Positions 7,095 to 64,000 are shown, counted from the first letter of the stretch. The stretch is DNA of 64,000 bases from Octopus vulgaris (GCA_951406725.2 OX597815.1:147250001-147314000); one strand, 5' to 3'. Translations and numbers: made by a program. The notes: generated from the sequence alone by a model not told the origin.

Positions 7095-7313
7095 GTTGGC
7101 ACAAGGCCGCTTCAAGACTGGTACCCATGCAAGCGCTTGACAGGGATTTGTCGATCGCAGCACGTAACCGCTACTGGCACATAATTTATCGACGCCGAAA
7201 GAATGAAATGCAAATTGGACCTCGGCGGTATTTGAAATCAGAACTTGAATGTGGACGAAATATCGTTACGCATTTCGTCCAGAAGGTTAAAGTTTCTGCC
7301 AGCTCACCGCCTT
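7095..7313 (-). mobile_element. tRNA-derived SINE, family 2 (diverged); a further decayed copy lies at ~6865-7030
   Basis: The minus strand begins aaggcggtgagctggcagaaac and matches the family-2 consensus seen at 26610 and 53678. Confidence 0.7.
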
Positions 7314-12585: not shown

Positions 12586-12721
12586 GGTACTGTTTCACCG
12601 ATTTTACGGAAAGAACTAGCAGTGCGGGGACCGGGCACACTTGAGGTCTCAACGGCGGCTGGTACGAAAATATAGTGGCCGGCAAAATATCATTTGTTAA
12701 TTATGATTAAGTTTTATTATA

Positions 12722-12910
12722 TTCTTCTCTACTCTAGGCACAAAGTTCGAAATTTTTGAGGAGAGGGCCAGTCCATTAGTTCGACCTCAGTACCCAAGTG
12801 GATTGAAGGTAAAATGAATCTCAGTGGAATTTGAACTCAGAACGTAAAGACAGACGGAATACCACTAAGCATTTCGCCCAGCGTGCTAACGTTTCTGCCA
12901 GCTCGCCGTC
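12722..12910 (-). mobile_element. tRNA-derived SINE, family 2
   Basis: The minus strand reads gacggcgagctggcagaaacgttagcacgctgggcgaaatgc..ctgagttcaaattcc..tgtgcctagagtagagaagaat. Confidence 0.85.
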
Positions 12911-12928
12911 TTTAAATTTTAATATATT

Positions 12929-13297
12929 ACGTGCGAAATGCGTAGCCGTATTTCGTCTGCCGCTACGTTCAGAGTTCAAATTCCGCCGAGGTCAACTTTG
13001 CCTTTCATCCTTTCAGGGTCGATTAAATAAGTACCAGTTACGCACTGAGGTCGATATAATCGACTTTATCCGTTTGTCTGTCCTTTTTGTCCTCTCTGTG
13101 TTTAGCCCCTTGTGGGTAGTAAAGAAATAGGTATTTCGTCTGTCTTTATGTTCTGAGTTCAAATTCCACCGAGGTCCACATTGCCTTTCATCCTTTCGGG
13201 GGTCGATTACATAAGTACCCGATGAGAAAACTACGGTCGATGAAATCGACTTAGCCCCATCCTCAAAATTGCTGGGCTTGTGCCAAATTCGGAAACC
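12929..13297 (+). mobile_element. Dimeric family-2 SINE: a unit with an alternative tail (12929-13129) followed by a 5'-clipped standard unit (13130-13297)
   Basis: Both units contain gagttcaaattcc(g/a)ccgaggtc..gcctttcatcctttc(a/g)gggtcgatta. The first ends tttagccccttgtgggtagtaaagaaata and the second starts mid-head at ggtatttcgtctg. Confidence 0.85.
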
Positions 13298-14949: not shown

Positions 14950-15378
14950 GCTTCAAAATTAGGTGCAAAGCCAGCAAACTCGGCGGAGAGTTAAATGGAT
15001 TGCATCGACCCAGTTCTCAACTGGTACTTATTTTATCAATCTCGATAAGATAATTGGCAAAGTCGGAACTTGAACTGAGAACGAAATGCCAGACGAAAGG
15101 CCACTACGATTTTTTCTGACATGCTGACGGTTCTACCAGCTCATAGCCTTAGGTCTTATATAAATTGGTTTCAATTTTAGCTCAAGGCCAGCGGTTTAGA
15201 GGGAGAAGGTAAATCAATTTCATCGATTGCAGTGTTCAACTGGTTCTTATTTTATTGACCCCGGAATAATGAAAGGAAATGTCGTTCTCGGCGGGGTTTG
15301 AAATCAGTGTAAAGACGGACGAAATACTGCTGGGCATTTTGCCCGGCTTGCTGGCGATTCTGTCCGCTCACAACCTTA
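14950..15378 (-). mobile_element. Two tandem diverged family-2 SINEs (~14950-15150, ~15165-15378)
   Basis: Each contains actgg(ta/tt)cttatttt and g/aacttgaactga or ggtttgaaatca plus gacgaaa, matching the reverse complement of family 2. Confidence 0.7.
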
Positions 15379-16199: not shown

Positions 16200-16608
16200 T
16201 ATTGGTTTCAAATTTTGCCATAAGGCCAGTAAGATCGGGGAGGTGTACGTCGGCTACATCAGCTCCGCTGCTCAAGTGGTACTTATTTTATCGACCCCGA
16301 AAGGGTGAAAAGGAAAGTCAACCTCGGCCAAATTTGAACTCAGAATGTAAAGACGTGCAAAATGGCGCTAAGCATTTTGTCCGGAGTCTTAACGATTCTT
16401 TTATAGTCTAGGCACAAGGCCTGATAATCTTGAGTAGGGGCAGTCGATTAGATCGACTCCCAGTACGCAACAGGCACATAATTTATCATCCCCGAAAGGA
16501 TGACAAGCAAAGTCGATCTCGGCGGAATTTGAATTCAGAACATAAAGACAGACGTAATCCCGCTCAGCATTTCGCCCGGCGTGCTAACATTACTGCCAGC
16601 TCACCACT
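16200..16608 (-). mobile_element. Two tandem family-2 SINEs (~16200-16400, ~16408-16608)
   Basis: Core motifs tatcgaccccgaaaggg..aatttgaactcagaa and ctcggcggaatttgaattcagaac..gccagctcacc. Confidence 0.75.
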
Positions 16609-26609: not shown

Positions 26610-26823
26610 GGTGGCGAGCTGGCAGAAATGTTAGCACGCCAGGCGAAATATTTAGCGATGTTTCGGCTGTCGTTATGTTCTGAGTTCGAATTCCGCGGAG
26701 CTCGACTTTGCCTTTCATCCTTTCGGGGTCGATAAATTAAGTACCAGTTGCCTACTGGAGTCGATCTGTTCGACTGGCCCTCTCCCCAATAATTTCGGGC
26801 TTTGTTCCTAGGGTAGAAAAGAA
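26610..26823 (+). mobile_element. tRNA-derived SINE, family 2, full length
   Basis: ggtggcgagctggcagaaatgttagc..gagttcgaattcc (B-box)..gcctttcatcctttcggggtcgataaattaagtaccag..gtagaaaagaa. Confidence 0.9.
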
Positions 26824-52464: not shown

Positions 52465-53677
52465 TATAACTTGTATATTATTGTACCGCTTTTATATTAC
52501 ATAGCATCTCAGAGTAGCAATTCTAGCTGTATAATTTATTAATCATCATACGTTGTGCTGTAATGCATAATCTAACGGCACCTTATACTAAAAGATATCT
52601 AATATCACATACCTTGATATTATCTACTGAACAGAAAATATTTATGTCTTCATGAAGCAATTCACTGCATGAGAGACGTCACAAAAGCTGAAGTTGTATT
52701 CATAGGCATGTGCCGTATGTCGACTTCTATAGTTAATAATGAAGCAAAACACCTTATAATATGAAAACACTGATTTACCCCATAAGTTTGAAGGATGTGA
52801 AACTGTTTGTATCTGCTCTTATGACATAATATCCATCGTGTAATCTATAAATATTTTCGAATATTTCAGTGAAAATTTAAACCTATGACATTTGAAAATG
52901 TAGAAATATAGATTAGTATATTTTGATAAATCTAGTAGTCTTCTGGAAATACAAAATAATAACTGTTATATAACTTAGTCTGTAAGACATCAAGTACACA
53001 AATTTATGGTAATGCAAATAGTAATGCAAAAATATAGCTCATAGGCTTAGAATACATTAGAATATTTAGCTAAAAGCGCGTCGTGTTTCTAACTGAAGTA
53101 CATCGGGAGGATTGTAACTCTAACCCCGAGTGTAGATTAATTAACCTCTCTTGATACGAGGTTGGTTTAATTAGGAAGAATATTTTGAGTAATATTAGCA
53201 ACAACATTTATTAATGCCAAGAGCTTCCAGTAATGGAACAACGGCAACACGGTTGGCAGTTGTTTGAATAATATTGATAATATAAATAGTTCTAAATTTA
53301 CCAATTTTAATATTGTCAAAATTCATTTATTATTTCTATATCATAGTTTATATATTATTTCAATATCTTTTCTCCAGTTGTCCTGAAATTTCACAAAGGC
53401 AGATTTCATTATGAATAATCAACGCGTATTGAAGCGAGAGAAAGGTGCATTTTAACAAAGCTTCTACCAACATCAGTATATTAAGTTTTTTCAACGTAAA
53501 TTTAGGGTCGTCGGGAAAAGGTTGTGTCTGAATCTATATTGCATTGGGGTATATTAATATAGGTGGATATTGTAGAACCCCTGCATAAATAAGTTACTCA
53601 TAAAATACTTCGGCTATTTAGAGAGGAAATAAATCTCTTCGTTACATCTTAATACGCAATAGCTCTATTTATTGCTA

Positions 53678-53884
53678 TTCTAGGTACAAGGCCCGAAACT
53701 TTTGGGGAGGAGGCCAGTCGATTAAATCGACCCCAGTATGCAACTGGTACTTAGTTTATTGAACCCAAATGGATGAAAGGCAGAGTCGACCTCGGCGGAA
53801 TTTGAACTCAGAACAAAAAGACAGACGAAATGCGGCTAAGTATTTCCCCCGGCCTGCTAACGTTTCTGCCGGCTCGCCCCCTTA
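53678..53884 (-). mobile_element. tRNA-derived SINE, family 2, full length
   Basis: Its reverse complement matches 26610-26823. Confidence 0.9.
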
Positions 53885-59175: not shown

Positions 59176-59453
59176 ATGCTAGGGTATTAACGATAACTTT
59201 ACGATACGGTTTCATGCAAATTACCACAAAATCAATATTGATGTTAACCTAAGTCGGTGAGCCGGCAGAAACGTTAGCGCGCTGTCAGAGTCGGGCGTTA
59301 TTTTTTGAGCGGAAGGATGGAAAAAAAAGTGAAAAATTGTAAAAAAAGACGTAACGGGATCGAATCGCGGGAGGCGCTTGTCGATGCGTGCCGTTGCTTT
59401 ATAGAAGGAACGCTTCTCGTTACTTCTTACAGAAGGAGCGTCGACCCCCAGTC

Positions 59454-60740
59454 ATGGAGACTTACGCAGGGGTTGCCGCAACGAAGAGTGGCTCGTCGCT
59501 TGTGATAAGAGACGTGGCTTTCAATAAGGAACAAATAAAGAAATATGAGAAATATGTAAAAAGGGAGGGTGAAAGCGTCAAGCTGATCCCCTCAGCAGAA
59601 ACAACGAAGGAGAGAGACAACAAAATGATAATTTACAGGACACAAGACAAGAACACTAGGAAGCTAATGAGAGTACCGATAGAAGAGATAGAAAAGTGTC
59701 TGGGTGACATAATGGATAACGCAATGTATGTGAGCAAAGGGAAGAAATATGGTACGGTGGAAGTGAGGTGTGCAACAAGTGAAGAGGCGGCCTCGCTAGC
59801 TTCCACTGTACTCAGAGCGGAAAATTGTATTATGTTACCTACCTACAAAGGGAGAAGAGGTGTAAGAGTCAAGATCCAAAATGTAGCACTGGAGAAAAAA
59901 GACGGAATGGCTGGTGACAGCCATTCTAGGGTCGGCCGAAAATGAAAGAGAAGTGGGGTCGATCACAGAGACCAACGTCGTAAACTGGAAGGGATACGGT
60001 GTCGAGCTATGGCTAATGGCCACTATAGAAGATATCGAGAGAATTCCCTTCCAGATAGAGGTGGAAAATGGAAAGACAATTGGCGTAACTGTAGAGGGAA
60101 GAAGGTCGAACTGTTATTTGTGCGGAACTAGGGGCCATATAAGAAAAGAATGTCCTCTATATGAGTTTAAAGTGGAGAAAGAAATGGAACGAAATGAGAC
60201 AACAGAAGAGGTAAAGATAGAGAAGGAAAAAGAACAGGAAGATGAAAAGAATAGTGCACCAAAGGTAGAGAAAACACAATGTAGAGAAACAATCGAAAAC
60301 GAACCAAAGAAACAACAGAAAAGACATAAGATAGAGAGACAACAGACAGAGAACTAAAAAGACAAGAGAAAGAAAAGAAGGAAAGCAAGAAGAGAGAAGG
60401 AGAGAAACCAAGACAGGAGAATAAAGAAGAAATAAGTCCTAAAAGGAAGACAAATGAATACACAGAACGGAATCAGTATTACAAATATTATGGGACAATG
60501 ATAACTTACAAGTGCTGCCCTGAAATGAGCGACTTAACAAGTGAAACAAAAGGAGATACATGGGTTAATATGGGAACCGAGTGGGAGGAAACGGGTGCTC
60601 TAATCCCTGAGGACAGAGCCGATGAGTTTCTCGAGGCCGCCGGAGAAAACGTGATAAATTACTTGGAGTATCGATTGAGAATACGTCCACGTACAATGGA
60701 ATATTACGAAGATCTGGTGCATGTAAAAGGATACTTCTAA
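59454..60740 (+). pseudogene. Frameshifted ORF1/gag-like nucleic-acid-binding protein (~430 aa) with a CCHC zinc knuckle
   Basis: METYAGVAA N-terminus (SYA-like), VTVEGRRSNCYLCGTRGHIRKECP knuckle, a Lys/Glu-rich segment and a C-terminal domain ending at 60740. Frameshifts lie near 59900 and 60330-60355. Confidence 0.8.
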
Positions 60741-60777
60741 ATTTGTGTTAAAAAAAGAAAAACTCTACTTGCAATTC

Positions 60778-61113
60778 TGTGAAAATGTATTTCGAAATTC
60801 TGGGAAATGTATTTTGAAATTAATGTAAAATGTTTGTTGAAATTTTGTGAAATGTATGTTTAAAATTATGTGAAATGTATTTTGAAAATGTATTTTGAAA
60901 TATTGAGAAAAGTATTTTGAAATTCTGTAAAATGTTTGTTGAAATTTTGTGAAATGTATTTTGAAAATATATTTTGAAATATTGTGCAAAGTATTTTGAA
61001 ATTCTGTAAAATGTTTGTTGAAAATTTGTGAAATATATTTTGAAAATGTATTTTGAAATATCGTGAAATGTATTTTGAAATTCGGTGAAATGTATTGTTA
61101 AAATTTTGTGAAA
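60778..61113 (+). repeat. Minisatellite of gtgaaatgtattttgaaa-like subunits with a 79-bp higher-order period
   Basis: tgaaat(g/a)tattttgaaaat recurs at 60871, 60950 and 61029. Confidence 0.85.
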
Positions 61114-64000
61114 GAACTGACGAAAATGTAACCACCCGATTTCGGGGATCGAGTGGGCATTACACCTCATTGTAAATATATTTTCATAACTCATTATTAT
61201 CTTTATTTTCTTCGTCTTTTTTCATTCGCTTTTATTATTTTAAGTTCCCCGGATGTTCTGTCCCCGTCTATGTTGGCCCCTTGTGGGTAATAAAGAAATC
61301 AGAAACGTTAGCACACCGGGCGAAATACTTATTTCGTCTGTTTTTACCTTCTGAGTTCAAATTCCGCCGAGGTCGACTTTGCCTTTCATTCTCTCGGGGT
61401 GGATAAATTAAGTATCATTTGCATACTGAGGTCCATCTGATCAAGTGGATTCTCCCCAAAAGTTTTGTGCCTTGTGCCTACAGTAGAAAAGAATATTGAT
61501 ATTAACCTAGGTAGGGAAAGAATTCAAATGGAAATGTTTGTAATGGATGTAATGAAAAGATGTAAAAAATATATTTTAGTTGTTGAGAATCTTCTAATGA
61601 ATTGTAAAGATAATAATAATTATAGTTTTGTCGAAGTTTTGCCACTGGACAAGCAAACAAACACAAGTATACTTTTATGCATTCATATATAAAATACAGT
61701 CTGTGTGCGCAAGTTTATATATCTCCATCTATGCAGATGAGAAAACCCTATTATGATTATTAATAACGTTTTTTATAAACTTCCCTAAGGAAGTCACAAC
61801 TCGGAAAGATGAACTGAAAATGATCAATGTCCCTGACATGGTTCCTCATACAGTTTCCTATGACTTTAGAATGAAGTGGCTTTGGACAAAGACAAAGAAC
61901 ATATGCTCATTCATTCAACGCTTGAAAATGTATTTTCATACCTGATAGCAGACGCAATGACGCTGTGCTCTGCAGAATATGCGCACACGCAGATTTATGC
62001 GCACAGACAACACGCAGACTGCACGCGCATACACACAAGATTCTGTAATGTAAATTCACGCAAAAACATTTCGGTTTCCATGCCCTCATTAAACTCTGAA
62101 ATACTTTGGTTTTTCAAGTTCTATATGGACTTCTTGTTTAGGAATGACTATATCTGTTTAAGGAATGGGGTGCTGGTGATGTATAGGCATATTATGAGTA
62201 GCATAAAATGAGTTGTAAGAAAAAAAAAACAGAAGCGGATATATCGGGGAAAAGACAAGAAGCTTTATACGTCTACAGTGACAGAATGCAGAGGTAAAAT
62301 GAAAAACACTTTTTCTGGTTTCACAACAAAGGTTTGGTTCCGGTTATGTGGTGGCATCTGCAAAGTTGGTTTTATTTAATTTCAGGGAATGTCGTTCTTT
62401 TTTATTGGTTATCCTTTCCAATCAAAGTATAGAGGAAAGTCTGGCTTCTCAGTGTTAGGCTGATATATGTTCAGTAGGCAAATGGCTCACATTGAAGCCT
62501 CATATTTGTTCTAGCCAACGTTTTAGGTCCAATAAATTTTTGAAATGACTTGTAAGACGATCTGGTTTAATATAAAATATAAGATCTCTTTTGGTGTATA
62601 TCTATACATCTCTAAGAAAGATTCGTGTGTGAATATGTTTGTATGAATATATAAATAAATATGTATATATATTTGCATATATGTATATATATATATGTGT
62701 GCGTGTATAAATATATATACATACATACATACATATATACATACATACATACATACATATACATACATACACACACACAAACACATACACACACACACGC
62801 ACACACACACATATATATATATACACAAATAATGACAGAGAAAGAAGAAGAGAAAGAGAGAACAAGAACCATTTGTATGAGTACGCTACATACATGCGTA
62901 GGCAGTTGCATTTATGTTAAACTCTATAGAGTGATTGTGCACATATTTATATATAACTTGGCGCAAAACTTGCAGATTCCTGACTCTACATTCATCCCTC
63001 ATGCATGCGTGCTGTATATCATATTTCTAAGTCCACAGAAATCTTTTTCTTTCAAGTTTACAGGAGCATTTTGTTCGTATATTTTTAAAATATACTTTTC
63101 AAATCCCTATAAGTTAGACGATTTTTGTTAATTTATACTGCGTGAATTTAGGTCGAAATATTTTATTAAACATACAAATTAGATACTGTGCGAAGTCACT
63201 TGTCTGGGAGAAAGTTCTGTTTCGTTTATAGACTAGCAGGTATTAACTAATACGATCTAGAACACAAACAGAAAAGGGTCTATCTGGATGAGAACGCAGG
63301 ATGTAGAGTACCGTATTAACTAAATATCACAAGCATAATTCATCGAGAGTAACACCGATTCTTTTGTAGACAATACGAGCTTGCTTTAAATATTGAATAG
63401 TTGCATCTGTTCTCTGACTAATGTTATCTGAAATTGTCTCACGACTCTATTTGTTGTAAATAACGAAGATCTATCTTGCCAAAATTCATGAAAATGAAGA
63501 ATGGTTAGGAAATTAATTGAGAATATTTAAATACATGTTTTTAGTAGGAAATTGTAAATCTGTTTTAATGTTAGCTAAAAGTTTAGTTGATGCAGAATAA
63601 AATAAATCTTCCAATTATTAGCTGAAATGTATCGGAACAAAACAAACATATGTTGAATATTCGCCATACAATAGCAATTCATCTTGATACTTAATGATTT
63701 AAAGGAGACGCACGTGCTATGAGTATTGTGGACAGATAGACTTATTACATTTATATTTACCGAGAGCAGTGTCGTACTAATCATTGGATGACAAATAGCT
63801 AAATTCCAAGAACTATCTACATATATTAGTGGAATGTATGTGCCAGAGTGTCAAACTTGCTTTAATGTCAAATAAACCAAGAGTTCATTTCGGATTCAAT
63901 TCCGATTTGAATCTATTTTTGTAAATCCATGTCTACATTTCATTCTGGACAGTAGGCAGGCCACATATTTTAATCAAACATAGGATTAAATAATTATTTA

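Follow-up and report, generated by a model that had tools for sequence, protein, structure and literature searches.

A decayed ORF1-only retroelement in a SINE head of Octopus vulgaris and its probable place in a long-lived, site-selective family

The window analysed here is a stretch of 64,000 nucleotides from Octopus vulgaris (GCA_951406725.2 OX597815.1:147250001-147314000). Close to its 3' end, on the + strand like all features below, a short interspersed nuclear element (SINE) is interrupted by a 2.0-kb retroelement whose single gene is of the open reading frame 1 (ORF1) type. We designate the family of this insert as family A. An initial annotation had proposed two nested elements, each with its own target site duplication (TSD), and this anatomy was confirmed. 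The outer TSD of the host SINE is an 18-bp repeat with one mismatch (59234-59251 and 61492-61509); by chance alone, a 50x50-nt box would contain about 2e-5 such pairs. The 5' part of the SINE head (59252-59284) resembles other SINE heads in the window and ends in the left inner TSD. The inner repeat, CAGAAACGTTAGC, is exact over 13 bp (59266-59278 and 61300-61312) and extends to 16 matches in 19 (59266-59284 and 61300-61318). Therefore, the insert comprises 59285-61299. The host SINE continues downstream (61300-61491) with a second tail type and is 75-80% identical to full window copies; the remaining host sequence compared with other window SINE copies gave 68-88% identity. We take the SINE head to be tRNA-derived. 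ARAGORN found no tRNA gene within the window.

The insert starts with a 169-nt leader (59285-59453; about 175 bp had been estimated), which is 72-88% identical to leaders of other copies. The gene (59454-60740) runs from an ATG at 59454 to a stop at 60738-60740. It carries frameshifts near 59894-59900 and near 60340-60357 and has 428 codons if read through, close to the roughly 430 residues initially given. A CX2CX4HX4C zinc knuckle is located at 60109-60156 (zf-CCHC, PF00098, E=4.2e-5). Frame and Pfam domain checks of the insert found neither reverse transcriptase (RT) nor endonuclease. The 3' untranslated region (UTR) consists of an array of short AT-rich units (60741-61119), a hairpin with a 9-bp stem (61132-61156) and, at the end, a 44-nt tail (61256-61299). 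The repetitive UTR and the terminus, AATAAAGAAAT without poly(A), matched their first description. In DNA contigs of three runs the stop directly adjoins the 3' UTR. Three DNA runs whose labels name three organisms contain individual contigs that extend from the unique left flank into the leader (about 97% identity); thus the window insertion is old and shared.

The protein had been described as carrying a zinc knuckle only. The knuckle is real, but the protein is also predicted to contain two RNA recognition motifs (RRMs) and a separate C-terminal domain. AlphaFold modelled the first 239 residues with a mean confidence (pLDDT) of 81.6; the best Foldseek matches were tandem RRMs (E=1.3e-4), and Atlas neighbours included ZCCHC3-type RNA-binding domains. 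Mapped from an intact copy, the predicted RRMs occupy approximately 59625-60085. They are followed by the CCHC knuckle, a long charged linker and a C-terminal domain of about 95 residues (60453-60737), for which a ferredoxin-like beta-alpha-beta-beta-alpha-beta fold is predicted. For this domain Foldseek gave no match at E<=0.001, the best VIA Z of 7.1 was within background, and Atlas gave no match. It did not align with the C-termini of two ORF1 types of long interspersed nuclear elements (LINEs; hhalign probability <1%). The C-terminal domains of family A and of a further ORF1-only family, B, are weakly similar (probability 14%).

A single-copy element, or ORF2 in other copies, had been named as observations that would speak against a family. 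Neither was found. The ORF search returned 303 candidate loci and the 3' UTR search 370; in each, 40 loci were scored and 30 fetched. Coordinate de-duplication left 56 distinct family-A 3' hairpins, and ORF2 was directly upstream of none. Read by eye, the family-A C-terminal domain was located 65-477 nt upstream of the hairpin at 48 ends; the other eight comprised one D-type ORF1, one partial ORF1 and six ends without an ORF. Unbroken ORFs of 489-493 residues were present at five loci (L022, L024, L027, L028 and L029). In a tree of ORF1 N-terminal domains (47 rows, 2 of 49 having been dropped as too short) the 28 family-A rows formed one clade (100/100, stem 0.81) with several subfamilies, and all sampled LINE ORF1s fell outside. 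Family-A ORF1 aligns with the ORF1s of adjoining LINEs and is 27-37% identical to other sampled ORF1s. The median dN/dS of the N-terminal domain was 0.16 (51 computable of 55 pairs of chosen representatives; Nei-Gojobori, saturated pairs excluded, dS often >1), which indicated purifying selection. For the C-terminal domain the median was 0.55, with some pairs >1. The copies show TSDs, 5' truncations and a LINE-like 3' end, all hallmarks of retrotransposition. The data support that family A is a multicopy, non-autonomous ORF1-only family and not a one-off deletion.

A protein of O. bimaculoides shares 48% identity with family A, the nearest named proteins carry the Octopus vulgaris label, and some family copies are annotated as host genes without an assigned function. 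No run holding family sequence was recorded as RNA; contigs of four runs, guessed to be RNA, span leader and ORF, which is not evidence of transcription. Some copies are mosaics. In L014 and L045 the 3' UTR is 96-97% identical to the window, the ORF only 72-82%. In L039 a D-type ORF1 is joined to a family-A 3' UTR, and this combination points to module swapping.

Which enzyme might mobilise family A? Many copies adjoin LINEs that encode Exo_endo_phos, RVT_1 and zf-RVT domains, and the best PDB matches of the endonuclease were L1 ORF2p (E=9e-15). By its apurinic-type (APE) endonuclease, RT and C-terminal zf-RVT the putative partner LINE belongs to the L1/Tx1 group. A search for a LINE with the same tail, as initially suggested, was successful: the 3' end of one such LINE had 697 candidates. 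Of 30 LINE-end loci 23 bear ORF2 sequence, four are internal deletions and three short 3' ends. Six of the 23 ORF2-bearing ends lie in a repeat termed T2 and three in a repeat T4, and family A uses both repeats as well. The common tail and the common targets lead us to infer that family A is probably mobilised in trans by the ORF2p of the partner LINE.

Besides family A, the tail occurs in L1/Tx1-group LINEs, in the main SINE family and in two more families with ORF1 only, B and F. Its core has at least 140,158 exact matches in the genome; in the loci read it was mostly part of a SINE. The shared tail indicates which LINEs probably drive this SINE family. The two SINE types are presumably OR1 and OR2. 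Octopus SINE OR2 is cited in the accessible part of PMC4758252. The 9-bp hairpin, about 140 nt before the element end, is conserved in 35 copies: 93% of cells are paired, double changes occur at three pairs, and none of 500 shuffles reached such pairing, a control that is inflated by kinship.

Family B measures about 1.75 kb and has 756 candidates, the top 40 copies being 97-99% identical. It has many ORFs of 365-383 residues and forms long head-to-tail arrays, often in a Helitron (L197-L226, at C7:4.99 Mb, C8:32.27 Mb, C14:37.74 Mb, C17:67.75 Mb and others). Its dN/dS was 0.12-0.17 (three pairs), and it was likely active recently. Family F comprises three loci on three chromosomes (L167, L169 and L175) with one shared internal deletion, which fuses the ORF2 start to the ORF2 C-terminal tip. 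Because all three share this deletion, family F shows a birth route of ORF1-only elements. Two of the three loci are at the SINE base. L035/L175 and L169 were at one time considered LINEs at this site; this was rejected as both are ORF1-only deletion derivatives.

The initial annotation had suggested that SINE heads are targeted. One exact nucleotide of the head, here called the SINE base, is indeed a hotspot, but only 2 of 56 family-A ends are located there. The exact window junction occurs six times in the genome. A looser tail-to-head pattern yielded 1,539 junctions (control 0), and 94 of 100 listed junctions, read by eye, had the 18-nt spacing of the window. The consensus 20-mer of the SINE head has 46,034 exact occurrences; even with ten times as many heads random placement arithmetically predicts about 12 junctions per offset. 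In 26 of 30 loci fully readable at such junctions the upstream unit was a SINE. Coding elements accounted for seven junctions at the SINE base (family A two, B three, F two), so some SINE-in-SINE arrays can arise by site-specific insertion. At C2:157 Mb (157.0 Mb) B and A elements stand in tandem at the same site as in the window, with TSDs between them. A second fixed junction, the tail followed by GGTATTTCG, lies about 23 nt deeper in the head (L117-L146, L051:8638 and window position 13124) and yields the common 184-bp tandem SINE spacing. Judged by eye, both sites are at hairpin loops.

The other family-A ends, assigned by eye, were distributed over T2 (11), a Helitron termed T3 (6), positions directly before a related element (23), two other recurring flanks (3) and unique or unclear flanks (11). 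Thus 45 of 56 ends were in recurring contexts, in a sample that is not random. The accessible text of PMC4494074 takes one type in more than 20% of flanks as target specificity; in our non-random sample T2 accounts for 11/56 and the SINE head for 2/56. For T2 there are 157 candidates. Among 30 copies fetched, about nine, two of them known beforehand, have a related element no more than about 90 nt away, its position differing between copies, and about 20 are without a family element. T2 is a composite repeat, at least 9 kb long, with an RTE fragment, microsatellites, a mariner-like miniature inverted-repeat element and a SINE (L041:700-9800, L057-L086); its reading as an RTE 5' UTR was rejected. 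T3 shows the ends of a Helitron, i.e. a 5' TC in 6/6, a 3' hairpin in 7/7 and an intact CTAG in 3/7 copies, with insertion between A and T, and is classified as such. Among 1,181 candidates, 30 copies were fetched; six, query included, had family A at one and the same site, and 24 were without a family element. The filled Helitron and T2 sites hold differing subfamilies and truncations. A decayed ORF1-like fragment is contained in T3 (L046:6480-7400, L049:1880-2400), and a shorter, deleted form is commonest among the fetched copies. Three more recurring 3' flanks, T4 (L089, L147, L149, L153), T5 (L161, L166, L173) and T6 (L108, L110), are in other repeats. In a Rfam search of seven loci (172 matches) none of the 150 listed reached the gathering score and no RNA-gene target emerged; nearly all listed were microRNA models on microsatellites.

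Family members often stand in trains. In 14 of 19 mapped arrays a LINE was 3'-most with ORF1-only units upstream; four had no LINE and one had it in the middle. Two further loci had the LINE upstream instead. Locus-specific TSD variants are repeated at the 5' boundary and at the next junction (C5, C1, C31 and C2:157 Mb). Because these variants repeat between units, the trains fit a serial insertion in which newer units were added on the upstream side. Three loci have the same order, A2-A3-A2, which leaves some room for hitchhiking or co-mobilisation. At a non-Helitron site (L051:2600-6550) units start with about 20 nt which resemble Helitron flank; this suggests that their transcription started inside a Helitron.

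Taken together, we consider it highly probable that the window insert represents a decayed member of an ORF1-only family of long standing, which likely borrows the endonuclease/RT of tail-sharing L1/Tx1-group LINEs and reinserts at a few fixed repeat sites including the SINE base. The LINE ORF2p would recognise the shared tail, perhaps together with the hairpin, and prime reverse transcription at the nick. The element's own ORF1p may package its RNA and increase its share of borrowed ORF2p. The target would mostly be chosen by the borrowed endonuclease through a weak pyrimidine|purine preference and local structure or chromatin, assisted by a microhomology of 2-3 nt at the 3' end of the RNA. 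The upstream copy of the TSD retains the native context, so that it could be cut again, and trains would build up. Many SINE-in-SINE arrays probably originated from the same serial process.

Several observations weigh against this reading. Only the best-scoring 30-40 loci of each search were sampled, and trains yield several ends that are not independent. The closest relative of the window's own subfamily among these best-scoring loci is at most about 94% identical. The 11 of 56 family-A ends with unique flanks mostly carry one tail variant, and by eye the target sites have no clear common consensus. In SINE-on-SINE junctions, serial insertions are here indistinguishable from amplified composite masters. 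Finally, ORF2-bearing LINE ends, sampled from one LINE subgroup only, were at the SINE base in 0 of 23 cases.

The last point, set against seven ORF1-only elements as the only non-SINE units at this site, would fit a different targeting step, in which the C-terminal domain of ORF1p selects the target via a host factor on promoter-like DNA; the other steps would be retained. The domain evolves faster than the N-terminal part, is unalignable to LINE ORF1 C-termini, and a precedent exists in the Dictyostelium TRE5-A ORF1p, which binds TFIIIB (PMC3159450, accessible part). Yet SINEs encode no protein and use the SINE base most often, T2 and the Helitron are common to differing ORF1 types including those of LINEs, and the tail variant tracks the target class at least equally well. 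The high dN/dS pairs comprise only about 95 codons and may reflect recombination. We regard targeting by ORF1p, the chief alternative for this step, as rather unlikely. Equally speculative is an extension in which several independent ORF1-only lineages would be swappable targeting modules for a tail-sharing LINE/SINE community, with the variable C-terminal domain directing insertions to SINE heads and Helitrons; insertion in series at these sites would explain much of the tandem structure of the commonest SINE.

Possibly the recurring flanks reflect little true targeting: Helitrons or composites already carrying insertions would have been amplified and tandems generated by unequal crossing-over. 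The Helitron ends of T3, the repeated A2-A3-A2 order, one spacer that recurs at two loci, and one subfamily with 97-98% identity across Helitron copies are compatible with this. However, family elements are missing from most copies of the Helitron and of T2, occupied copies differ in family, truncation and position, and local TSD variants were duplicated in place. The flanks of the window and of C2:157 Mb are unrelated, and three ORF1-only families at one SINE base are left unexplained. We consider this a shade less probable than targeting by ORF1p. LINE internal deletions do occur (L156, family F) and SINE heads are very common, but that the window copy is a one-off LINE deletion which landed in a SINE by chance is hardly credible given 56 ends without ORF2, a deep clade that includes none of the sampled LINEs, and a probability of at most about 1e-4 for a random hit on the SINE base in the same orientation (arithmetic, ten times more heads allowed).

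How does the family compare with known systems? Strict HAL1 elements are derived from mammalian L1, have an ORF1p with coiled-coil, RRM and C-terminal domain, and end in poly(A). The initial label 'HAL1-like' is apt by analogy but does not make family A a HAL1 element: the octopus ORF1 is predicted to have two RRMs and CCHC, and the end is AATAAAGAAAT without poly(A). HeT-A forms head-to-tail arrays with its partner LINE. In the accessible part of PMC5786205 HeT-A, HAL1 and Ag-Sponge are three ORF1-present non-autonomous LINE types whose protein is proposed to help transposition. Family A is of this kind, as it propagates a LINE-homologous ORF1 under selection and without ORF2. It resembles HAL1, which arose several times in mammals (PMC5753468, accessible part), as a non-autonomous L1-group derivative with ORF1p only and with repeated origins (PMC5753468, PMC5786205). 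Unlike HAL1, it has an invertebrate host, shares a sequence-defined tail with a SINE, strongly prefers certain sites and forms trains. HeT-A (Jockey clade) and Ag-Sponge (CR1 clade) are likewise ORF1-only, with a proposed co-assembly with partner proteins (PMC5786205). The octopus LINE group differs from theirs, the arrays are interstitial, in Helitrons or other repeats, and separated by TSDs, and nothing suggests a host function.

Crocodilian Tx1-Mar LINEs and SINEU-3 (cf. Xenopus Tx1) prefer a DNA transposon, and their successive insertions leave tandem copies with a TSD between them (PMC4494074, accessible part). The likeness is a LINE and a SINE with a preferred transposon target and TSD-separated tandems; unlike there, octopus passengers include protein-coding ORF1-only families, and the targets are several, including a Helitron and the head of the same-tail SINE. 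Dictyostelium TRE5-A.2 is an ORF2 deletion which keeps ORF1, is mobilised in trans via a structured 3' module and targeted near RNA polymerase III genes (PMC3159450, accessible part). Family F is the closest octopus likeness. TRE5-A.2 arose from its partner by deletion and is still close to it, and its insertion sites lie about 50 bp upstream of tRNA genes (PMC3159450), whereas family A shows only 27-37% identity to other sampled ORF1s and is inserted within the SINE head.

LINEs with ORF1 only and Tx1 elements that target transposons both have precedents; what stands out is their combination in one genome, with an old (A), a young and abundant (B) and a just-born (F) ORF1-only lineage and an exact SINE-head site. 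With all three side by side, one can test why a parasite should retain ORF1 once ORF2 is lost. The accessible literature contained no account of an octopus ORF1-only system. PMC13282606 counts O. vulgaris L1-Tx1 families, its supplement lists only 80, and ORF1-only ones are unmentioned in the accessible part, in whose text 'ORF1' and 'non-autonomous' are absent; Repbase and the sequence library of that paper may hold the families unnamed. More SINE copies, some nested or in tandem, are located in the window at 7179-7262, 12719-13217, 15004-15362, 16273-16595, 26623-26823 and 53658-53884.

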